This document shows, one piece after another, positions 4,301 to 38,395 of a DNA stretch of 64,000 bases (the stretch's first letter is position 1; every line of letters begins with the position of its first letter). The position numbers and the translations under genes were made by a program. The notes under the pieces are model-generated. The model saw nothing but the letters and a program-made list of their open reading frames with translations. It searched no databases and was not told the DNA's origin. Origin of the DNA: Escherichia coli (GTDB lineage: Bacteria > Pseudomonadota > Gammaproteobacteria > Enterobacterales > Enterobacteriaceae); NCBI RefSeq assembly GCF_003790525.1, contig NZ_CP033634.1. One strand, 5' to 3'.

Positions 4301-6589
4301 GGTGTGGGTAAGACCACACAGTTCCGGGCGGTGATGTCAGCCGTGAACATGCTGCCGGAGAGTGAGCGTCCCCGTGTCGTTGGGCTGGGTCCCACGCACC
4401 GCGCGGTCGGGGAGATGCGCAGCGCCGGCGTGGATGCACAGACACTGGCGTCCTTTCTGCATGACACGCAGCTGCAGCAGCGCAGCGGAGAAACGCCGGA
4501 TTTCAGCAACACGCTGTTCCTGCTCGATGAGAGCTCAATGGTGGGCAATACCGACATGGCACGGGCATACGCCCTGATTGCGGCCGGTGGCGGTCGTGCT
4601 GTGGCCAGCGGTGACACGGACCAGCTGCAGGCCATCGCGCCCGGTCAGCCTTTCCGTCTCCAGCAGACGCGCAGTGCTGCCGATGTGGTCATCATGAAGG
4701 AGATTGTGCGTCAGACGCCGGAACTGCGGGAGGCGGTATACAGCCTGATTAACCGGGATGTGGAAAGGGCACTGTCCGGGCTTGAGAGTGTGAAACCGTC
4801 TCAGGTTCCCCGTCAGGAGGGCGCATGGGCACCGGAGCACTCCGTGACGGAGTTCAGTCACAGCCAGGAAGCGAAACTGGCAGAAGCGCAGCAGAAGGCG
4901 ATGCTGAAAGGCGAGGCTTTCCCGGATATCCCCATGACACTGTATGAAGCCATTGTCCGCGACTATACCGGCAGGACACCGGAAGCACGGGAGCAGACGC
5001 TGATTGTCACACACCTGAATGAGGACCGGCGCGTACTGAACAGCATGATTCATGATGCACGGGAAAAGGCCGGTGAGCTGGGCAAAGAGCAGGTCATGGT
5101 GCCTGTCCTGAACACAGCGAATATACGTGACGGAGAACTGCGTCGTCTCTCCACCTGGGAGAATAACCCGGATGCCCTTGCCCTGGTGGATAGTGTGTAT
5201 CACCGGATTGCCGGTATCAGCAAGGATGACGGGCTGATAACCCTGCAGGATGCGGAAGGTAACACGCGGCTGATTTCGCCCCGGGAGGCGGTGGCTGAAG
5301 GCGTCACACTGTACACCCCGGACACCATCCGGGTGGGAACCGGTGACCGGATGCGCTTCACGAAGAGTGACCGGGAGCGCGGTTATGTGGCCAACAGCGT
5401 CTGGACGGTGACAGCGGTTTCAGGTGACAGTGTCACGTTGTCGGACGGACAGCAGACCCGGGTGATTCGCCCCGGTCAGGAGCGGGCAGAGCAACATATT
5501 GACCTGGCTTATGCCATCACCGCCCACGGTGCGCAGGGGGCAAGTGAAACCTTTGCCATCGCGCTTGAAGGCACGGAAGGTAACCGGAAACTGATGGCAG
5601 GCTTTGAGTCAGCTTATGTAGCCCTGTCGCGTATGAAGCAGCATGTGCAGGTGTACACCGATAACCGTCAGGGCTGGACGGATGCCATCAACAATGCCGT
5701 ACAGAAAGGAACTGCCCACGATGTGTTTGAACCGAAACCGGACCGGGAGGTCATGAATGCAGAGCGGCTGTTCAGTACGGCGCGGGAGCTGCGGGACGTG
5801 GCGGCAGGCCGTGCCGTTCTTCGTCAGGCGGGACTTGCCGGGGGAGACAGTCCTGCACGGTTTATTGCTCCGGGACGTAAATATCCGCAACCGTATGTGG
5901 CACTGCCGGCTTTTGACCGTAACGGCAGGTCCGCCGGTATCTGGCTGAACCCGCTGACCACGGATGACGGAAACGGGCTGCGGGGATTCAGCGGTGAAGG
6001 CCGGGTGAAAGGCAGCGGGGATGCACAGTTTGTGGCCCTGCAGGGCAGCCGTAACGGAGAGAGCCTGCTGGCTGATAATATGCAGGATGGTGTCCGGATT
6101 GCCCGTGATAATCCTGACAGCGGTGTGGTGGTGAGAATCGCCGGTGAAGGCCGTCCGTGGAATCCCGGTGCCATCACCGGTGGTCGCGTGTGGGGGGATA
6201 TCCCGGACAACAGCGTCCAGCCGGGGGCCGGAAATGGTGAACCGGTTACAGCTGAAGTGCTGGCACAGCGGCAGGCTGAAGAGGCCATCCGCCGTGAAAC
6301 GGAACGTCGCGCAGATGAAATTGTCCGTAAAATGGCAGAGAACAAACCTGACCTGCCGGATGGCAGAACAGAGCAGGCTGTCAGGGAGATTGCCGGGCAG
6401 GAGCGTGACCGGGCTGCCATAACTGAACGGGAAGCCGCGCTGCCGGAGAGTGTGCTGCGTGAATCACAACGGGAGCGGGAAGCGGTCCGGGAGGTTGCCC
6501 GGGAAAATCTGCTGCAGGAGCGTCTGCAGCAGATGGAGCGGGATATGGTCCGTGACCTGCAGAAAGAGAAAACCCTGGGCGGAGACTGA
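1320..6589 (+). CDS. traI: TraI relaxase/helicase; frame interrupted by an apparent 1-nt loss in a G6 run near 1608-1613 (ORFs 1320-1694 and 1646-6589)
   Basis: N-terminus [35 protein letters not shown] and the 1647-aa downstream ORF both match recalled F TraI; the two ORFs are in different frames and together give full length. Confidence 0.85.
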
Positions 6590-6608
6590 TACAGGAAGAC
6601 AAACACTG

Positions 6609-7355
6609 ATGACAACGGATAACACGAATACGACACGTAACGATTCACTGGCTGCACGGACCGATACCTGGTTGCAGTCGTTTCTGGTCTGGTCACCCGG
6701 ACAGCGGGATATCATCAAAACGGTGGCACTGGTGCTGATGGTACTGGACCACATCAATCTGATATTCCAGCTGAAGCAGGAATGGATGTTTCTGGCCGGG
6801 CGAGGAGCCTTTCCGCTGTTTGCCCTGGTGTGGGGGCTGAATCTGTCCCGTCATGCGCATATCCGGCAACCGGCCATTAACCGGCTGTGGGGATGGGGAA
6901 TTATTGCCCAGTTCGCATATTATCTGGCCGGCTTTCCCTGGTATGAGGGGAATATCCTGTTTGCCTTTGCAGTGGCGGCACAGGTGCTGACGTGGTGTGA
7001 AACGCGCAGTGGGTGGCGTACAGCAGCGGCCATTCTTCTGATGGCCCTGTGGGGGCCCTTGTCCGGCACCAGTTACGGCATTGCCGGGCTGCTGATGCTG
7101 GCAGTCAGCCACCGGCTGTACCGGGCGGAAGACAGAGCGGAACGTCTGGCGCTGGTCGCCTGCCTGCTGGCTGTTATTCCGGCGCTTAACCTTGCCACCA
7201 GTGATGCAGCGGCGGTGGCCGGTCTTGTGATGACGGTGCTGACCGTTGGTCTGGTGTCGTGTGCAGGAAAATCATTACCCCGTTTCTGGCCCGGGGATTT
7301 TTTCCCGGTATTCTACGCCTGTCATCTGGCTGTGCTGGGCGTTCTGGCGCCGTGA
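6609..7355 (+). CDS. traX: TraX F-pilin acetylase
   Basis: MTTDNTNTTRNDSLAARTDTWLQS... near-identical to recalled F TraX; ATG at 6609 inside the longer listed ORF. Confidence 0.9.
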   Translation: MTTDNTNTTRNDSLAARTDTWLQSFLVWSPGQRDIIKTVALVLMVLDHINLIFQLKQEWMFLAGRGAFPLFALVWGLNLSRHAHIRQPAINRLWGWGIIAQFAYYLAGFPWYEGNILFAFAVAAQVLTWCETRSGWRTAAAILLMALWGPLSGTSYGIAGLLMLAVSHRLYRAEDRAERLALVACLLAVIPALNLATSDAAAVAGLVMTVLTVGLVSCAGKSLPRFWPGDFFPVFYACHLAVLGVLAP

Positions 7356-7409
7356 CGGGTGTGGTATCTTTGACCGTAACAGGATGATTCGTCAGAGGCA
7401 GAACACAGC

Positions 7410-7970
7410 ATGACAGAGCAGAAGCGACCGGTACTGACACTGAAGCGGAAAACGGAAGGGGAGACGCCTGTCCGCAGCCGGAAAACCATCATCAATGTCA
7501 CCACGCCACCAAAGTGGAAGGTGAAAAAGCAGAAGCTGGCCGAGAAAGCAGCCCGGGAAGCAGAGCTGGCGGCAAAAAAAGCGCAGGCCAGACAGGCACT
7601 GTCCATTTATCTGAACCTGCCCACGCTGGATGAGGCCGTGAATACCCTGAAACCCTGGTGGCCGGGATTGTTTGACGGTGACACGCCCCGGCTTCTGGCC
7701 TGCGGTATCCGGGACGTGTTACTGGAAGACGTGGCGCAGCGGAATATCCCGCTCTCGCATAAAAAACTGCGCAGGGCGCTGAAGGCCATCACCCGTTCAG
7801 AAAGCTATCTGTGTGCCATGAAAGCCGGTGCCTGCCGGTATGACACGGAAGGGTATGTGACGGAGCATATTTCTCAGGAGGAGGAAGCGTATGCGGCAGC
7901 GCGTCTGGATAAAATCCGCCGCCAGAACCGGATAAAGGCAGAACTTCAGGCCGTGCTTGATGAGAAATAA
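7410..7970 (+). CDS. finO: FinO fertility-inhibition RNA chaperone
   Basis: 186-aa product [14 protein letters not shown]... matches recalled F/R100 FinO; position after traX is canonical. Confidence 0.92.
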
Positions 7971-8557
7971 AAAAGCCTCCGTCAGAGAGAGGAGGCAGGG
8001 AAATAAGGCTTAAAGGAAATAACTTCCGTACCCAAAAGGAAATCGGTCCACTGAATTATTTAACACCATAATGTTGACGGGTTAAAGAGGAGTGATAAAG
8101 ATGAATGGATTCAGAAACAGTTCACGGAACGGTCAGGTCTGGCGCTGGCAGCGTGCCGGAAGCCGGGCCGTTATTCTGGAGGTCAGTGGACGCTGGATGG
8201 AAGCGGCAGAAGCATGGCGACGGGCTGCCGGTGTTGCACCCCGGACAGACTGGCAGCAGTTTGCCCGAAAAAGGGCTGAACAATGCCACCGACGCTGCCG
8301 GGGAAGGGTGTAACGAAAAAGCAGCCTTCATTACTCCAGGGATTCAGAAGGCTGAATAATGCATGAGATTTGCTTTTTTTAATATCCGGTCGGGCAGTAT
8401 GACCGGACAGTTCTGAGTAGCACAGAGTTTTTTCCGTATTAAGTCGTGATTTTATATTTTGTGATTAATTTCGCAAAATAAGGTGTTATTCAGTGTGTGC
8501 TGCGATATTCAGGATTACCTGAAATACAGGTGCCATTTATCTGATATGGAGAATAAT

Positions 8558-9019
8558 ATGAGGAAATATATTCCACTGGTATTATTTATCTTTTCATGGC
8601 CGGTATTGTGTGCAGATATTCATGGACGGGTTGTTCGTGTACTGGACGGTGATACCATCGAGGTCATGGACTCACGGAAGGCAGTGCGGATCAGGCTGGT
8701 AAATATTGATGCACCGGAAAGGAAACAGGATTATGGCCGGTGGTCAACGGACATGATGAAATCACTGGTTGCAGGAAAAACGGTTACCGTCACATATTTT
8801 CAGCGAGATCGTTATGGTCGTATTCTCGGGCAGGTTTATGCACCAGACGGAATGAATGTTAATCAGTTTATGGTCCGGGCCGGGGCTGCCTGGGTATATG
8901 AGCAGTACAACACAGATCCCGTGCTGCCTGTCCTTCAGAACGAAGCCAGACAACAAAAACGTGGGCTCTGGTCAGATGCTGATCCGGTTCCCCCCTGGAT
9001 ATGGAGACACCGTAAATAA
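8558..9019 (+). CDS. Secreted thermonuclease-family (staphylococcal-nuclease-like) endonuclease
   Basis: Signal-peptide-like N-terminus MRKYIPLVLFIFSWPVLCA then SNase-like motifs (LDGDTIEV, RLVNIDAPE, DRYGRILGQVY); GGAG 6 nt before the ATG at 8558. Confidence 0.75.
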   Translation: MRKYIPLVLFIFSWPVLCADIHGRVVRVLDGDTIEVMDSRKAVRIRLVNIDAPERKQDYGRWSTDMMKSLVAGKTVTVTYFQRDRYGRILGQVYAPDGMNVNQFMVRAGAAWVYEQYNTDPVLPVLQNEARQQKRGLWSDADPVPPWIWRHRK

Positions 9020-9064
9020 AGCGATGGCAATCTTATCATTCATCTGTTCTCAGCGGGAATAAAA

Positions 9065-9274
9065 ATGGCGAAAACAAAACAGGAATGGCTGTATCAGTTA
9101 CGGCGATGTTCATCAGTCAATACGCTGGAAAAAATTATTCATAAAAACAGAGACAGTTTATTAAACAGTGAACGTGAATCATTTAATTCAGCAGCAGACC
9201 ACCGGTTAGCGGAATTAATCACCGGAAAGTTATATGACAGGATACCAAAAGAGATATGGAAATATGTAAGGTAA
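9065..9274 (+). CDS. Hypothetical small protein
   Basis: 69-aa ORF between nuclease and DUF2726 genes in the same orientation; no recognisable domain. Confidence 0.4.
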   Translation: MAKTKQEWLYQLRRCSSVNTLEKIIHKNRDSLLNSERESFNSAADHRLAELITGKLYDRIPKEIWKYVR

Positions 9275-9311
9275 TAATTCAACATAATTAATTTCCAGGA
9301 ACAGATAAATA

Positions 9312-9902
9312 ATGAAGTTGATTATTTTTATTCTCATTGTTCTGATTATTGCAGCGTTACTTATCCGGATTATCCTCAGAAGTGTAAATCAGCATTCTCC
9401 TTTGCTGATGCAGTTACATGCGGCAGGTATACGGACCGGTGATGCAGAGCGAATACTGTCCGGCGGTGAATACTGGCAACGTCAGAAGACGCTGCTGACA
9501 GAAAGGGAAGTCAGTTTTATGAAAGGACTGTTCAGAATTGTGGATATGAAGCGGTGGTATCTGTGTCCGCAGGTACGGGTCGCGGATATCGTCCAGCTGA
9601 ACGGGAATATCCGGCCACGATCACGCCAGTGGTGGCAGTTATTCAGGATGGTGTCTCAGTGGCATGTTGATGTGGTTATCGTTGAGCAGCGTTCGTTCAG
9701 TATTGTTGCAGCAGTAGAGCTGGATGATGCCAGCCATTTACGACCGGAACGCAGACGCCGGGATATTCTTCTGGAAGAGGTTCTGAGGCAGGCTGGTATT
9801 CCGTTGCTCAGAAGCCACGATGCCAGAAAACTGCTGCAGATGACCGGAGAATGGCTGAATACAACAGGGGCTGATCAGCAGTCCCCGGAACATCGTAGCT
9901 GA
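9312..9902 (+). CDS. DUF2726-like (nuclease-related fold) protein with N-terminal transmembrane helix
   Basis: Hydrophobic N-terminus; central WHVDVVIVE and ELDDASH segments recalled as typical of DUF2726 proteins common downstream of finO in IncF plasmids. Confidence 0.65.
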   Translation: MKLIIFILIVLIIAALLIRIILRSVNQHSPLLMQLHAAGIRTGDAERILSGGEYWQRQKTLLTEREVSFMKGLFRIVDMKRWYLCPQVRVADIVQLNGNIRPRSRQWWQLFRMVSQWHVDVVIVEQRSFSIVAAVELDDASHLRPERRRRDILLEEVLRQAGIPLLRSHDARKLLQMTGEWLNTTGADQQSPEHRS

Positions 9903-10056
9903 CGCCTTCGCGTTGCTCAGTTGTCCAACCCCGGAAACGGGAAAAAGCAAGTTTTCCCCGCTCCCGGCGTTTCCGTAATAAAAAACGGGAAATGGTGGTC
10001 ACAGAATAAATTCCGGAACTACCTGTACCCAAACTTTATATAATAAAGGTGAATAT

Positions 10057-10506
10057 ATGGAATATGATGATGTATCAGAATTGATGATTAAGCGTGAACA
10101 CAATATTCTTATTGTTGGGAATTCTGCCTCCCACATTGATAAGTTTTTTAAGGAGTATTCTATACCAAGTTCTAAATATTATGATTTCACTCAGATTAAC
10201 AGTGATTCAGATGTAGAGAGAAATGAGAATGCTGTCTCTTTTATCAGGGATGCAATGAATAGTGAAGAGCTCACAATCATTTTTAATTGCGTTGGGTGGC
10301 CTGATTTAGGTGGTGGAGCAGCAGTATCACAGTTTGCAATGATGGCCAGAAAATTTGGTAAACAACTTATTGTCGCTGTAAGTGAAAAGGATGCCATCAA
10401 ATTAAAAGACAACTTTGATATTATTGGGATGTTGTCATATGGTAAAGAAAATTTTATTGCCATGAGTCATACGAAAAGCGAGTTAACTGGAGGGAAACGT
10501 CGGTAA
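10057..10506 (+). CDS. Hypothetical 149-aa protein in an AT-rich segment flanked by imperfect direct repeats
   Basis: Clean ORF with ATG start; Rossmann-like ILIVGNSA and GGG-containing segments; function unassigned. Confidence 0.5.
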   Translation: MEYDDVSELMIKREHNILIVGNSASHIDKFFKEYSIPSSKYYDFTQINSDSDVERNENAVSFIRDAMNSEELTIIFNCVGWPDLGGGAAVSQFAMMARKFGKQLIVAVSEKDAIKLKDNFDIIGMLSYGKENFIAMSHTKSELTGGKRR

Positions 10507-10649
10507 CGGATTAAAAATAGATGTAAATAAAAAGCATACTTATTGGCTGGAGTGACGCCTTCGTGCTTCGGTAGTAAAAAACGGGAAATGAAGGTAATAG
10601 TCAGCAACAGGGAATGTGGTATTATCGCGGCGGGTGTCTGAGCCTTTCT

Positions 10650-10740
10650 GGTTCAGGCAAGACGCAGGTACCAGAAATGCGAAGACCCCACTTGTTAATC
10701 CATTAACTCGTGAGGTCTGCATGAAGTACTTGAACACTAC
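10650..10740 (-). ncRNA. Putative SrnC-like antisense RNA (approximate)
   Basis: Position inferred from the Hok/Sok paradigm (antisense across the leader start region); promoter not identified. Confidence 0.3.
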
Positions 10741-10927
10741 TGATTGTAGCCTCTTCCTTGCAGAGAGGTCAAAGTTTATGACGAAATATGCCCTTATCGG
10801 GTTGCTCGCCGTGTGCGCCACGGTGTTGTGTTTTTCACTGATATTCAGGGAACGGTTATGTGAACTGAATATTCACAGGGGAAATACAGTGGTGCAGGTA
10901 ACTCTGGCCTACGAAGCACGGAAGTAA
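10721..10927 (+). CDS. SrnB leader/overlapping reading frame (mok-like) of Hok-family type I toxin locus
   Basis: In-frame upstream ATG at 10721 (MKYLNTTDCSLFLAERSKF) ahead of the toxin ORF, the arrangement recalled for srnB. Confidence 0.5.
   Translation: MKYLNTTDCSLFLAERSKFMTKYALIGLLAVCATVLCFSLIFRERLCELNIHRGNTVVQVTLAYEARK
10778..10927 (+). CDS. srnB: SrnB, Hok/Gef-family membrane toxin (type I toxin-antitoxin)
   Basis: MTKYALIGLLAVCATVLCFSLIFRERLCELNIHRGNTVVQVTLAYEARK, a typical ~50-aa Hok-family peptide; GAGAGG before the ATG at 10778. Confidence 0.8.
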   Translation: MTKYALIGLLAVCATVLCFSLIFRERLCELNIHRGNTVVQVTLAYEARK

Positions 10928-11210
10928 GCTGCCGGGCGGGGACGGAAGTCCCCGCTTTCCGGGAGTGTGAGGTATTTCAGGGGCAGACACCCTACACGTC
11001 AGAAACCGCCGGTCCCGCCCGGGGCCGGCACACAGGTTAAGGCATTTCCTGTTTTTCAGCCATTTCGCAACAAAATTCACACTAAACGACAGTAATCCCC
11101 GTTGATTTGTGCGCCAACACAGATCGTCGTCACAATTCTCAAGTCGCTGATTTCAAAAAACTGTAGTATCCTCTGCGAAACGATCCCTGTTTGAGTATTG
11201 AGGAGGCGGG

Positions 11211-31434: not shown

Positions 31435-32523
31435 CTATTCAGTTAGCATGAGCTTTGCTTTAAGAAACGTAAGTTTGATGTCATCAGTTTTGGTGAACTT
31501 GAACTTACCGTCAGTAGAAGCGTTAAACCTTTCAAAATAGTATTCAAGTAGCGGATCGTACCTGCCACCGTGAACCCAAGTGTAGAACTTACCAAGTTCA
31601 TAACGTAACTCTTTATCAAGTTCAGATCTTATTCTCAGCTCACTATCGTTTGCTAGTTCAACGATGTTCATTTCTTGAAGGTTCGTCTTAATCTCTTCAA
31701 TCAGAGGTAGGAGGGATTCTTTATACTTATCAGCCAATGGTACAAGGTCAGCGTCAGTTACTTCCGCTTCAAAAATCATAATCAGGTCGTCAATCTCCCC
31801 GTTATAGTAATCGTTATCTAATCGTTTTTCTGACTCAGTACGAAGAACATAGAGTTGTTCTAAAGGATCTAATTTAGTCTCAATTTTTTCTTTTGAAAGT
31901 TTGTGTTGATACTCAACAAACAGCGTTTCAATCCTATCAGCAATAACATCAAGATACTCATATCGAATTCTGAGAAATTCCAACAGCTCATTGATATTGA
32001 GGTTTAACGTTAGGTCTTCTTTACCCACATCTCGACTGTACAAATGAACACTCAAATCGCCAGTGTTGAAATGACTTTGAAATGGCCAACTTGCGAAACG
32101 CTTTGAGTTTTCTTGATTCAGATTTACGGGGTGAGCACCGAAACACGCCCTGATAGTTTTAAAATAATTATTATCATCTTCATTAGCGAAGAGGCGATCT
32201 TTGAAACATTTCTTTTCACCATAAAACGGATCTTTCTTATCAGTTATAAACACTCGATGGAGTTGTTTTATTGACTCGAAAATAAGGTCTATTGAAGAGA
32301 TCAGAGAGTAGACCTGCATACATCTACTATCTATGTTCTTGTCAAACTCAGGCGCATTTTCTAAGTGGCGAACAGAGACAGAGATCCAATCCATAGCAGA
32401 GCAAACGAGGTTAAAAAGATTCTTACCACCTTTATCTTTGTATATTTGATACACAAAGCTAGAGTTTGAGTTAACTAAGTCTCGAAAATCACTGATTTTA
32501 TCGTCACTAACAACGTTTCTCAT
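31435..32523 (-). CDS. Hypothetical 362-aa protein, candidate abortive-infection effector (Rx5H HEPN-like motif)
   Basis: Long clean ORF in a low-GC segment; RACFGAH fits the Rx4-6H HEPN pattern; no other family recognised. Confidence 0.6.
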   Translation of the reverse strand: MRNVVSDDKISDFRDLVNSNSSFVYQIYKDKGGKNLFNLVCSAMDWISVSVRHLENAPEFDKNIDSRCMQVYSLISSIDLIFESIKQLHRVFITDKKDPFYGEKKCFKDRLFANEDDNNYFKTIRACFGAHPVNLNQENSKRFASWPFQSHFNTGDLSVHLYSRDVGKEDLTLNLNINELLEFLRIRYEYLDVIADRIETLFVEYQHKLSKEKIETKLDPLEQLYVLRTESEKRLDNDYYNGEIDDLIMIFEAEVTDADLVPLADKYKESLLPLIEEIKTNLQEMNIVELANDSELRIRSELDKELRYELGKFYTWVHGGRYDPLLEYYFERFNASTDGKFKFTKTDDIKLTFLKAKLMLTE

Positions 32524-32958
32524 TCTCTAATCGCCTTCTAACCAATTGAAAATATTATGAAGAATGGCAAAAATGATAGTGATAGTTCTTCAATTCTTCA
32601 ACTTCTTTTTTGATTTGAAGTGAAGTGATACGCTGGGTTTTGTCACTTAGTTAGATTTGAACGATGAGGATCTCTAGCCAGTTGTATTGCTAGGCATTAT
32701 CCGAAGACAAATAGAAGAACTGAACCTCGAAGTAACTTTTATCCTAGGACGTGCTGAAGCTGGTCTCCGCAAACTTGTGATCTAGGCCAACACGCCTTTG
32801 CCCCCAAAACATTTAAAGCTATCCCTCATCACACCTTGCTAACTCGTTACTTGCCCGAATTTTTGTAATGAGCCAATATGCTATTAGTTGGTTATCCACT
32901 TAATTGTTTTATCAATTTATTTGATGACAATTTACACCATGTGTTCAAGGTATTGATT

Positions 32959-34059
32959 ATGGAATTACAGACAAGGCTAGTTTTTATCGATACAAGCGCT
33001 TTTGAAAAGAAAAACTATCAATTTGGGCAACACGCTCTTGGTCGTCTTCAAGAACTAATTGAGGATGAGAAAATCCACTTGCTCATTACTGATGTGACAA
33101 GGAAAGAGATCGACTCCCATCTCAAACACAAATCTGAAGAAGCAGCTTCTATGATAAAGAAGATGCAAAGAGATGCGATGTTCCTAAGAAACACCCCCGA
33201 CCTTGATTGTCATGGCATCTTCACCAAGATTAAAGGTGATGATATTTATGCTGTTATCAGTGAAAAATTTGATGATTTCGTCGAAAACGGCTACGTCGAA
33301 ACAATTGATGTAAGCACTGTTAACCCTCAAGTTGTATTTGATGCTTACTTCAACAACCTTCCTCCTTTTGGCAAAGAATCAAAAAAGCACGAGTTTCCTG
33401 ATGCATTTGCGCTAGAAGCTATTAAACAGGTGAGCTTGGCTAGAGGATATTCAGCCTATATCGTTAGTGACGACGGCGATATGAAATCATTCTGTGAGAA
33501 AGAAGATAACTTCATTCATCTTGAAAATGTCGATGACCTAATTGACTTGATTGTTCGAAGCGACAAAGCGTACGAAGAACCAGCCAAATTTGCTGATGAA
33601 ATATTCGAACAACTCCTAGAACAAATCAAAGCGGATGCCCTGCAAGCTCTCGAAGATGGCGAGTTCAACTATGAAAACGCAGATCCTTTCGATGAGACTA
33701 TCAATTCTATAGAAATCAACTCGGTGAATGTTGGGAAGAAAAACTTACAGAATGTCGATGCCGAGTGGGCTGAATACGAAGTAGAATTTGAGGTGGTTGT
33801 TACGGCAGATTATCGATTCTCAGATTATGACCGTTCACCTTGGGACCCTGAAGACAAGCAATATGTATTCGTCTTGAGTAATGAGTCAACAGTAAAACAC
33901 AAAGAAACATACACTGCCCACATAACACTTGCCTATACCGATGGATTAAAAGCTAACGCATACATTGAAGAGTTTTACTTCCAAGATACATATTTTGAGC
34001 TGACTGATAATGACTCCGAAGTCATTAGCTTCAAAGAACTAGATATCAACGGTGAATGA
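32959..34059 (+). CDS. PIN-like domain protein (resembles DUF4935-type PIN-like nucleases); alternative upstream start at 32878
   Basis: N-terminal LVFIDTSAF...LLITDVTRKEI...EFPDAFALEAI...YIVSDDGDM pattern of acidic residues on a PIN-like scaffold; stop lies 2 nt before the next gene. Confidence 0.6.
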   Translation: MELQTRLVFIDTSAFEKKNYQFGQHALGRLQELIEDEKIHLLITDVTRKEIDSHLKHKSEEAASMIKKMQRDAMFLRNTPDLDCHGIFTKIKGDDIYAVISEKFDDFVENGYVETIDVSTVNPQVVFDAYFNNLPPFGKESKKHEFPDAFALEAIKQVSLARGYSAYIVSDDGDMKSFCEKEDNFIHLENVDDLIDLIVRSDKAYEEPAKFADEIFEQLLEQIKADALQALEDGEFNYENADPFDETINSIEINSVNVGKKNLQNVDAEWAEYEVEFEVVVTADYRFSDYDRSPWDPEDKQYVFVLSNESTVKHKETYTAHITLAYTDGLKANAYIEEFYFQDTYFELTDNDSEVISFKELDINGE

Positions 34060-34060
34060 C

Positions 34061-34529
34061 ATGAAGCTATATGTAATAGGTAATGGCTTTGATGTTCATC
34101 ATGGCCTTGACACTAGGTATACATCTTTTGGGCTTTATCTCAAAAATAACTACTGGGAAACTTATGAACTATTGCTCGACTATTACGGGTTTGCTGACTT
34201 AGACCCAGATTTTCCAACAACAATGTCAGACCCTTTATGGTCTGAATTTGAAACGAGTATGTCACTGCTTGATAAAGATTCAGTTTTGGAAGCAAACATG
34301 GATGCAATGCCAAACTATTCTTCAGATGACTTTCGAGACAGAGACCGATACACGCTTGAAATTGAGATGGAGCGAATACTTGGCCTTCTAACCACTGAAC
34401 TGTATAAAGCATTCAAAGAGTTCATTTTGGCTGTACAGTTTCCTCAGTTTGATCACAGCCGATCAGTAAACATTGATAGAGACGCTGTTTACCTCACATT
34501 CAACTACACAGATACGCTTTCTCAATACT
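34061..34529 (+). pseudogene. AbiH-like abortive infection gene, truncated at codon 156 by IS2
   Basis: N-terminus MKLYVIGNGFDVHHGLDTRYTSF matches the recalled AbiH N-terminal signature; the frame runs into the IS2 left end at 34530. Confidence 0.6.
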
Positions 34530-34620
34530 TAGACTGGCTCCCTGAATCTCCAGACAACCAGTATCACTTAAATAAGTGATAGTCTTAATACTAGTTTTTA
34601 GACTAGTCATTGGAGAACAG

Positions 34621-34986
34621 ATGATTGATGTCTTAGGGCCGGAGAAACGCAGACGGCGTACCACACAGGAAAAGATCGCAATTGTTCAGCAGAGCTTTGA
34701 ACCGGGGATGACGGTCTCCCTCGTTGCCCGGCAACATGGTGTAGCAGCCAGCCAGTTATTTCTCTGGCGTAAGCAATACCAGGAAGGAAGTCTTACTGCT
34801 GTCGCCGCCGGAGAACAGGTTGTTCCTGCCTCTGAACTTGCTGCCGCCATGAAGCAGATTAAAGAACTCCAGCGCCTGCTCGGCAAGAAAACGATGGAAA
34901 ATGAACTCCTCAAAGAAGCCGTTGAATATGGACGGGCAAAAAAGTGGATAGCGCACGCGCCCTTATTGCCCGGGGATGGGGAGTAA
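34621..34986 (+). CDS. insC: IS2 OrfA (InsC)
   Basis: [56 protein letters not shown]... Confidence 0.92.
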
Positions 34987-35849
34987 GCTTAGTCAGCCGT
35001 TGTCTCCGGGTGTCGCGTGCGCAGTTGCACGTCATTCTCAGACGAACCGATGACTGGATGGATGGCCGCCGCAGTCGTCACACTGATGATACGGATGTGC
35101 TTCTCCGTATACACCATGTTATCGGAGAGCTGCCCACGTATGGTTATCGTCGGGTATGGGCGCTGCTTCGCAGACAGGCAGAACTTGATGGTATGCCTGC
35201 GATCAATGCCAAACGTGTTTACCGGATCATGCGCCAGAATGCGCTGTTGCTTGAGCGAAAACCTGCTGTACCGCCATCGAAACGGGCACATACAGGCAGA
35301 GTGGCCGTGAAAGAAAGCAATCAGCGATGGTGCTCTGACGGGTTCGAGTTCTGCTGTGATAACGGAGAGAGACTGCGTGTCACGTTCGCGCTGGACTGCT
35401 GTGATCGTGAGGCACTGCACTGGGCGGTCACTACCGGCGGCTTCAACAGTGAAACAGTACAGGACGTCATGCCAGGAGCGGTGGAACGCCGCTTCGGCAA
35501 CGATCTTCCGTCGTCTCCAGTGGAGTGGCTGACGGATAATGGTTCATGCTACCGGGCTAATGAAACACGCCAGTTCGCCCGGATGTTGGGACTTGAACCG
35601 AAGAACACGGCGGTGCGGAGTCCGGAGAGTAACGGAATAGCAGAGAGCTTCGTGAAAACGATAAAGCGTGACTACATCAGTATCATGCCCAAACCAGACG
35701 GGTTAACGGCAGCAAAGAACCTTGCAGAGGCGTTCGAGCATTATAACGAATGGCATCCGCATAGTGCGCTGGGTTATCGCTCGCCACGGGAATATCTGCG
35801 GCAGCGGGCTTGTAATGGGTTAAGTGATAACAGATGTCTGGAAATATAG
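34944..35849 (+). CDS. insD: IS2 OrfB (InsD) transposase catalytic part (expressed as OrfAB frameshift fusion)
   Basis: DDE integrase-like ORF overlapping orfA in the -1 frame. Confidence 0.92.
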
Positions 35850-35957
35850 GGGCAAATCCAGTGATATCCAATTCATTCAGTCTGTAAACACAATAGTGGA
35901 CATTCTCACATTGTCAAACGTGTATAGTTAGAGAGTGGAAGTAAAAGTGTATGGGTG

Positions 35958-36056
35958 GTTATTGCTGAGTACGATGACCGGTTCGTTGCGAAGGTCCGGG
36001 CGGAAAACTTTTTCACATGAGGCGTAGAAACTGTTGATATCAGCCAGTGCAAACAT
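35958..36056 (-). pseudogene. impB: impB 5' portion (first 33 codons)
   Basis: MFALADINSFYASCEKVFRPDLRNEPVIVLSNN matches the recalled UmuC N-terminus; the ATG overlaps the impA stop. Confidence 0.75.
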
Positions 36057-36493
36057 CAGCGTAACTCCCGCGTCCTGTGTATCACGTGAGTGACAACACC
36101 AAAAATACAGATGTTTTCCGGATACAGTGTGCGGAACTCCGGGCTGTCTGAAACCGGCTCCAGTGCCGGGCGTGGGCGCAACAGCAGTCGTTTGACGGTG
36201 AACTCACCATCGATCTCAGCGATAACGATGTCCCCGTGTTGTGGTTTTTCGGCCCTGTCCACTACCAGCAGATCACCATTCTGCACGCCAGCCTGGTTCA
36301 TCGATTCACCGCTGGCGCGCAGAAAGAAGGTGGCTGCAGGTCTGCTGATGCAATAGCTGTTCAGATCCAGTTCCTGCTCAGCATAATCAGTGGCAGGCGA
36401 AGGAAAACCGGCCAGGCAACGATCGGCAAACAACGGTCGCACGTAACTGTCATTGCCTGAAGGGTCAGCCGGACGGTGATAAACGGTACTCAT
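36056..36493 (-). CDS. impA: ImpA (UmuD-like, LexA-type S24 peptidase fold)
   Basis: 145-aa product aligns with recalled UmuD (FPSPATDYAEQELDLN...GESMNQAGVQNGDLLVVD...GDIVIAEIDGEFTVKRL). Confidence 0.88.
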   Translation of the reverse strand: MSTVYHRPADPSGNDSYVRPLFADRCLAGFPSPATDYAEQELDLNSYCISRPAATFFLRASGESMNQAGVQNGDLLVVDRAEKPQHGDIVIAEIDGEFTVKRLLLRPRPALEPVSDSPEFRTLYPENICIFGVVTHVIHRTRELR

Positions 36494-37378: not shown

Positions 37379-38395
37379 ATGACTGTTGTTACTGTCGGTA
37401 TTGATTTAGCTAAAAATGTGTTCGCTGTGCATGGCGTTAATGCTGCAGGAAAAGCTGTTTTAGTTAAGCCTCTTGTGCGTCGGGCTAAATTGCTTGAATT
37501 GATTGCAACACTTCCAGCATGTCTGATTGGAATTGAAGCATGTACAGGTGCACATTACTGGGCAAGAGAGTTCCAGAAAATGGGGCATACAGTTCGAATT
37601 ATGGCGCCGCAACTGGTTTCTCCATACCGTATGGGTGGCCGTCATGGGAAAAATGATGCTGCAGATGCCGCTGCCATTTGTGAAGCTGTTACCCGTCCTA
37701 ATATGCGGTTTGTTCCCATAAAATCAGTTGAGCAGCAAGGGCAGTTATTTGTACACAGAGCTCATCAGGGATATGTCAGTGAGAGAACAGCATTGATTAA
37801 TCGCATCCGGGGATTGCTCAGTGAGTTAGGTATTGTTCTCCCGCAGGCGTTTAAAGCGTTTTTATCCGGGGTGGCTCAGGTCCTTGAGGATTTGCCCGGT
37901 TACTGTAATCAGGTTATTGGTGATCTTCTTAATGAGCTTTATCACATAGAAGAAAAGATTAAAAACAGTGAAAAACTCATTCAGCAACTTGCCAGAGATA
38001 ACTCAGCAGCACAACTACTAATGCAATTCAGGGGGATAGGCCCGATGACTGCAACAGCAATCGTTGCCAGCATAGGTAATGGTCATGATTTCAAGAACGG
38101 ACGTCAGTTTAGTGCCTGGCTGGGGCTAACACCAAGACAACAAAGTTCCGGGGGGAAAGCACGGTTAGGGAGAATAACTAAAGCCGGCGACAGCTATCTC
38201 AGAACACTTCTTGTTTTGGGGGCGAGATCTGTATTGTTGGGAGCAGCTAAAAATGATGATCCGGTCAGTCGATGGGCCCTGCAGTTAAAAGAAAGGCGAG
38301 GATATGGACGAGCGCTTGTTGCGATAGCAGCAAAAAATGCACGTATGTGCTGGGCAATGTTGCACCTGAGAGATGAATTCAGATTTCCTGCCTAG
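37379..38395 (+). CDS. IS110-family transposase/recombinase
   Basis: 338 aa; N-terminal RuvC-like segment (VGIDLAKNVFAVHG...IGIEACTGAHYW), NDAADAAAICEA motif and C-terminal GIGPMTATAIVASIGNGHDF segment; element ends not determined. Confidence 0.85.
   Translation: MTVVTVGIDLAKNVFAVHGVNAAGKAVLVKPLVRRAKLLELIATLPACLIGIEACTGAHYWAREFQKMGHTVRIMAPQLVSPYRMGGRHGKNDAADAAAICEAVTRPNMRFVPIKSVEQQGQLFVHRAHQGYVSERTALINRIRGLLSELGIVLPQAFKAFLSGVAQVLEDLPGYCNQVIGDLLNELYHIEEKIKNSEKLIQQLARDNSAAQLLMQFRGIGPMTATAIVASIGNGHDFKNGRQFSAWLGLTPRQQSSGGKARLGRITKAGDSYLRTLLVLGARSVLLGAAKNDDPVSRWALQLKERRGYGRALVAIAAKNARMCWAMLHLRDEFRFPA

Follow-up and report, generated by a model that had tools for sequence, protein, structure and literature searches.

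A simple insertion of IS2 generates a 5-bp target site duplication, and members of the IS3 family move mainly by a copy-out-paste-in route via a circle, a route that does not itself delete flanking DNA. An IS-associated deletion is classically recognized by a single insertion sequence (IS) whose flanks do not match and by a gap when compared with a reference. Only the right inverted repeat (IRR) of IS2 serves as donor in the first chemical step of transposition, and the left inverted repeat (IRL) is the recipient (PMC3299598). Of the 83 events recorded in the long-term evolution experiment for IS150, another member of the IS3 family, 14 were an IS with an adjacent deletion and no duplication (PMC11708052); these deletions spanned 14 bp to 48.9 kb, and in every case a simple insertion had come first (Ngan et al. 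2024, PMC11708052). SEs (strand-biased circularizing integrative elements) form the second kind of described system to which the locus relates. Characteristic of SEs is a recombination of attL with attR from which a circle of one strand arises and after which no empty donor site is left. SE-SenBL10, located on a Salmonella chromosome (BL10, NZ_CP024619.1, 1982483-1992641), has a length of 10,159 bp and 38.19% G+C, and knockouts of intA, intB, or srap abolish the formation of attS (the circle), with no complementation of intA and intB in trans (PMC10214605). The supplementary table of Idola et al. 2023 lists WP_011264068.1 and WP_011264070.1 of plasmid pSC138 as a tfp-srap block and counts pSC138 as SE-positive (PMC10214605). 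Here, we analyzed a stretch of 64,000 nucleotides from Escherichia coli (NZ_CP033634.1; hereafter, the window), in which IS2 very likely entered an SE residing in umuC and 6,559 bp to one side of it were then lost through an IS2-associated deletion.

A complete IS2 of 1,331 bp occupies positions 34530-35860 on the plus strand of the window, from its left end TAGACTGGCTCCCTGAATCTCC, which begins at 34530, to its right end ...GGGGCAAATCCA, which ends at 35860, and each of these terminal sequences was found once in the window. Inverted-repeat detection and the sequence itself placed IRL at approximately 34530-34571 and IRR at approximately 35820-35860, and orfA (34622-34986) and orfB (34944-35849), both on the plus strand, were taken from the list of open reading frames. 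The transposase is intact in RefSeq (WP_088895425.1), with a programmed -1 frameshift, and the protein is identical to that of chromosomal IS2 copies. The element is 99.1 to 99.5% identical to annotated IS2 copies and 99.8% identical to two chromosomal copies, so that size, terminal inverted repeats, frameshifted orfA/orfB, and identity all assign it to IS2 of the IS3 family. Only one copy of IS2 is present in the window, and likewise in the whole of the matching plasmid pGZM7d (NZ_CP129283.1); the median in E. coli is IS2 at four places per genome.

The flanks of this copy do not match. The left flank reads ...CTCAATACT, its last five bases being ATACT, and the right flank reads GTGATATCC, its first five bases being GTGAT, and hence the 5-bp duplication is absent. 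Both boundaries are unambiguous, as the junction-adjacent base differs between IS2 and the intact reference. An apparent extension of similarity by 12 to 27 bp past the right end of IS2 in the top E. coli matches was dismissed as chance. As a control, the two chromosomal copies that are 99.8% identical carry perfect 5-bp duplications (CGAGT/CGAGT and GCGAC/GCGAC), which shows the lack of one to be a genuine anomaly of the copy in the window; it marks a secondary rearrangement and is no argument against the identity of the element as IS2.

Comparison with intact copies located the rearrangement precisely. The queried 5.4 kb (31000-36400) are 100% identical to the E. coli plasmid pGZM7d, and the segment missing at IS2 is present in full in 16 plasmids from Escherichia, Shigella, Salmonella, and Klebsiella, with approximately 30 plasmid records matching the deleted block. 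In the alignment with an S. dysenteriae plasmid locus (L003), the window up to 34529 corresponds to L003 up to 6349, and the window from 35861 onward corresponds to L003 from 12906. The loss lies exactly at IS2; it measures 6,556 bp against L003, and 6,559 bp against pSC138 and the majority of the other copies, the pSC138 coordinates missing from the window being 4501-11059. The sequences that abut IS2 are thus non-contiguous in the reference, and the 6,556 to 6,559 bp that separate them there are absent here; the deleted block was sought elsewhere in the window and not found.

The intact insert is 10,159 bp long, as in the pSC138 copy (L004, 998-11156, corresponding to 101,399-111,557 of the plasmid; 10,159 bp, 38.25% G+C). 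Its cargo on one strand comprises a gene for a 362-amino-acid protein, a PIN_12 gene, and a 960-nucleotide abiH gene (319 amino acids), and on the opposite strand, counted from the far end, follow genes for proteins of 509, 616, 663, and 146 amino acids. The deletion took the last 491 of the 960 nucleotides of abiH, a 255-bp spacer, and srap, intB, tfp, and intA on the minus strand, and it stopped 3 bp before the intA ATG, the start codon lying 3 bp to the left of the base equivalent to 35861 in intact copies. The initial annotation had read the absent duplication between ATACT and GTGAT as the trace of a deletion, had measured 97 bp between IS2 and the right terminus of the insert, and had argued that the interrupted AbiH-like gene needs several hundred base pairs more than that. 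Each of these points is borne out: IS2 at 34530-35860 lacks a duplication that its chromosomal controls possess, the 97 bp are exact (35861-35957), and intact abiH runs 491 nucleotides past the IS2 site. The annotation had also called for comparison with an intact copy and had held that an abiH-like gene ending inside the 97 bp after IS2 would speak against a deletion; the 16 plasmids instead support the deletion, with abiH continuing for 491 nucleotides in DNA that is missing from the window. Its proposal that the loss removed the 3' part of a defense cassette stands only in part, since the 3' end of abiH is gone, but only 491 bp of the loss are defense gene and the remainder is the mobility module of the element, with the four genes that it needs to move (srap, intB, tfp, and intA). 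Judged from the alignment, the surviving 97 bp are the leader and terminus upstream of intA and not the tail of the defense cassette.

The insert that carries IS2 spans 31027-35957 and splits a minus-strand plasmid umuC/impB gene. The 3' part of this gene (29848-31026, minus strand) was identified from the list of open reading frames, the junction contexts, and the IMS families that Pfam assigns to this gene in locus L016, and it is severed by the insert from the 5' fragment (35958-36056, minus strand), whose sequence comprises 33 codons and an ATG that overlaps the umuD stop. At the left border, a 6-bp repeat GTTATT (AATAAC on the coding strand) at 31021-31026, on the attR side, adjoins the SE terminus C' (CACCGTTACACGTTTTACACCC, 31027-31048), which is identical in three other copies (L003, L004, and L005) and whose boundary was set by a contig with an empty site (L024). 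At the right border, alignment to intact copies delimits the surviving intA-proximal end of the SE (35861-35957), which includes terminus C (...GGAAGTAAAAGTGTATGGGTG); the insert ends ...GTAAAAGTGTATGGGTG at 35957, followed by GTTATT at 35958-35963 on the attL side, again as judged from the empty site. The termini form an imperfect inverted repeat (CACCGTTACACGTTTTAC versus CACCCATACACTTTTAC at the other end, reverse complemented). The empty site was found in a short-read contig of another sample, in which the same umuC allele is uninterrupted (...CTCAGC AATAAC GATGGC...), and AATAAC occurs once in this empty site and twice around the insert. The borders thus have the layout of those of an SE, in which the imperfect terminal inverted repeats C and C' measure 13 to 19 bp and each border carries a 6-bp spacer or footprint. 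When the left junction contexts were compared (window 30997-31026, L004 968-997, and L005 1468-1497), the 6-mer on the attR side differed between copies (ATTATT versus GTTATT), as would be expected of a carried footprint. In three alleles of the umuC/impB/rumB type that differ clearly from one another, the element was also seen to occupy the same two codons (Asn-Asn of ...SNNDGC...). These junctions fit an element that targets a conserved motif of umuC site-specifically and carries a footprint along.

Two further features were observed in the neighborhood of umuC. At 29761-29837, upstream of a ParA gene (29018-29644, minus strand), there is a run of an 8-bp unit AAGATAAC, reported by the repeat finder as seven overlapping 29-nucleotide copies at 8-bp spacing, which is probably a partition or operator site. 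On the other side, approximately 900 bp past umuD and dinI, an IS110-family element with an ISShdy1 transposase lies at 37379-38395; it breaks the alignment to the plasmid of S. dysenteriae (window 37012/37032 versus L003 14058/15094).

The genes lost from the window identify the element. In intact copies, their order is an ordinary recombinase, a non-catalytic recombinase-fold protein, a large recombinase, and a small protein (intA-tfp-intB-srap). The 509-amino-acid IntA matches Phage_integrase (E value 5e-7), the 616-amino-acid Tfp has only a weak partial match, and the 663-amino-acid protein has no Pfam match and shows an HDFRR...Y tyrosine-recombinase motif in its sequence; NCBIfam was uninformative for both the SE proteins and the cargo. 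The insert is an SE, and from length, G+C content, and the published family listing, we infer that it is essentially SE-SenBL10. The intA-tfp-intB-srap block next to terminus C, in order in the intact relatives, is wholly deleted from the window, and the copy there is a remnant of an SE and not a functional member. Among more distant relatives, the chromosome of the marine bacterium Pseudoalteromonas piscicida (NZ_CP074588.1, 511043-516813) carries a relative of the recombinase module with 78.6% nucleotide identity over 5.8 kb, and a Shewanella baltica plasmid carries an abiH segment that is 93% identical. Taken with the 38% G+C, these two relatives suggest that the element may have originated in marine gammaproteobacteria.

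How the deletion came about was reconstructed from the product. We propose that, if the transposase drove the deletion, IS2 would have entered the SE by simple insertion in abiH, duplicating ATACT, and that a deletion initiated at IRR would then have run rightwards from IS2 to 3 bp before the intA ATG. The outcome would be one IS2 with one flank from each original site, and hence no 5-bp duplication. An insertion in abiH before a rightward deletion is the favored order because the novel joint lies at IRR, the only donor end, and this simple insertion followed by an IRR-driven rightward deletion would be the most economical route. An ancestor with the insertion in abiH would show the joint of IS2-IRR with ATACTACGCAATCC, and an ancestor with the insertion upstream of intA would show the joint of GCCATGTGGTGAT with IS2-IRL. 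Synthetic junction queries for both sites had no match in PLSDB, and neither PLSDB, nor the 5,426 complete genomes of E. coli that were searched, nor look-ups of exact proteins yielded a simple-insertion ancestor at either site. The look-ups of predicted 5'-truncated AbiH products returned only a contig with another IS at another position of abiH (L028), a palindromic artifact (L029), and fragments at contig ends. Coverage across the real junctions came from pGZM7d only, both in PLSDB and in the 5,426 genomes. The documented ancestor that an IS-associated deletion would ideally have is therefore missing, which is an absence from databases and not a disproof, and because no simple-insertion ancestor was found, the order of events and the distinction between a one-step and a two-step route rest on inference.

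The product itself would be the same if two IS2 copies in the same orientation had been present, one lying in abiH (at ATACT) and the other 3 bp upstream of intA (at GTGAT), and homologous recombination between them had excised 6.5 kb together with one IS2. Recombination of this kind yields exactly what is observed, a single IS2 with mismatched flanks, and recombination between ISs is a recognized cause of missing duplications (PMC11708052); IS2 is also abundant in E. coli, with a median of four places per genome. Such a history nevertheless requires IS2 to have hit twice, independently, within 6.5 kb, in a plasmid where only one IS2 is present today, and no plasmid with either single insertion or with both was found in PLSDB or in the 5,426 complete E. 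coli genomes. We regard it as quite possible, if short of probable.

A single event, in which IS2 was captured at a double-strand break or by a deletion in progress and so left no target duplication, would account for the missing duplication and for the ancestor not being found, and Ngan et al. 2024 (PMC11708052) proposed capture without duplication for IS5 and IS481. All 14 cases from the IS3 family (IS150) were nonetheless resolved as insertion followed by adjacent deletion (PMC11708052), and nothing in the sequence calls for the extra hypothesis, which makes a single capture very improbable here. That the junctions are an artifact of assembly, by collapse or mis-joining over a repeated IS2 in a strain whose element is really intact, is very improbable indeed: IS2 is a 1.3-kb repeat across which short-read contigs do mis-join, and one contig (L019) exits IS2 into unrelated DNA, but at least five other samples share the left junction at 100% identity and at least three others share the right one, the plasmid has only one IS2, the missing block is absent from the window, and an assembly error is unlikely because both junctions recur in independent assemblies. 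Draft genomes of isolates that have a junction in common with the window include GCA_958306045.1, GCA_003686615.1, GCA_035820335.1, and GCA_016108925.1. Contig L019 was set aside as junction evidence, being a short-read path through a repeat with its exit into unrelated DNA. Insertion of IS2 followed by a one-sided deletion thus remains our preferred reading, and as such the phenomenon is already known: it is an ordinary IS-associated deletion, with no new mechanism.

The deletion has distinct consequences for each gene of the cargo. What is left of abiH is its 5' part (34061-34529, plus strand), 469 of 960 nucleotides or 156 of 319 codons, recognized through a PADLOC match to the full-length homologue, the annotation WP_225877551.1, and alignment to intact copies. 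Its frame continues for 16 codons into IS2 to a stop at 34579, giving a predicted fusion product of 172 amino acids. The full-length homologue matches the PADLOC AbiH model with an E value of 1.1e-29, with its best stretch at residues 113-298, and the window retains residues 1-156 only. Because 156 of 319 residues are left and most of the conserved domain is gone, the AbiH remnant is very probably inactive. AbiH was the sole PADLOC match among the proteins of the element. The 362-amino-acid cargo gene (31435-32523, minus strand), drawn from the list of open reading frames and the annotation, is intact, and its protein had no match in Pfam, NCBIfam, or PADLOC. The PIN_12 (DUF4935) gene (32878-34059, plus strand; Pfam PF16289, E value 5.6e-36) is also intact; it is annotated with 393 or 366 amino acids depending on the record, most homologues have 366, and an internal ATG at 32959, which would give 366 amino acids, is probably the true start. 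Homologues of PIN_12 at 41 to 51% identity sit beside other defense-like genes (TIR, NERD-helicase, and DUF4238) and have no AbiH neighbor. PIN_12 and AbiH as an obligate two-gene system was considered and rejected, as these homologues stand alone; because they occur without AbiH, the two genes are probably independent and AbiH alone was lost. The remnant as a whole keeps both termini and none of the four core genes, and it should be immobile, since the core genes are gone and the published knockouts abolish circle formation.

Loss of parts of the element is not confined to the window. At least four independent decays, including the IS2 deletion described here, occurred among the plasmid copies that we examined. 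In NZ_CP061760.1 (L014, 7306-8500), IS5 replaces 4,541 bp, a stretch that includes tfp in full, the greater part of intB, and part of intA. In CP088639.1 (L015, at approximately 5109), the element breaks off within abiH, where unrelated plasmid DNA follows. The Providencia/Proteus form in pC131 (L005, at approximately 5668) ends 177 bp after abiH and has neither core genes nor a C terminus. It would seem that abiH and the cargo region have been hit by ISs repeatedly. Separate observations concern another isolate (GCA_053243075.1; L028, 1-60), in which a different IS abuts abiH at the equivalent of approximately 34435 in the window, and NZ_MK181559.1, in which IS3 lies inside the cargo region. 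Whether these decays reflect a recurrent, selected process, by which plasmid SEs in enterobacteria lose the recombinase core and/or AbiH through independent IS events and the immobilized defense cargo stays fixed in umuC, is a suggestion that we make tentatively and consider doubtful.

Taken as an insertion followed by a deletion, the history of this locus explains together an abiH pseudogene, an insert in umuC that has ends but no recombinase, and an IS2 without a duplication. In the annotation of this plasmid, AbiH should be scored inactive and the insert listed as a dead SE, and the case shows that ordinary IS activity can strand SE-type elements.

Set against known systems, the event resembles the adjacent deletions of IS150 (PMC11708052) in leaving a single IS without target duplication, in a one-sided loss, and in a size within the range of 14 bp to 48.9 kb. 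It differs from the IS150 cases (PMC11708052) in that the stepwise history is reconstructed here, and in that the right end of IS2 is the only donor of the first step (PMC3299598). Like GInts (PMC5385486), the intact relatives of the insert group three tyrosine-recombinase-like genes with a small gene at one end, carry their cargo at the opposite end, and are bordered by imperfect direct repeats, but the non-catalytic protein of GInts comes third (ginA, ginB, ginC, ginD) (PMC5385486), whereas the weakest integrase-like protein here comes second, as in SEs. We rejected a GInt as the identity of the insert on this gene order, on the published tfp-srap listing, and because GInts form a separate protein cluster. 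Like SEs (PMC10214605), the intact relatives have intA-tfp-intB-srap in order adjoining one terminus, imperfect terminal inverted repeats of approximately 20 bp, a 6-bp border repeat, and 38% G+C, and like SE-SenBL10 (PMC10214605) they measure 10,159 bp. Unlike SEs (PMC10214605), the copy in the window has lost the four core genes and is left with its termini and part of its cargo. It lies on a plasmid, in umuC/impB, and plasmid copies are neither named in the description of SEs, nor is their defense cargo described there (PMC10214605); the locus thus adds a plasmid-borne, defense-carrying, umuC-targeting example to this recently defined class.
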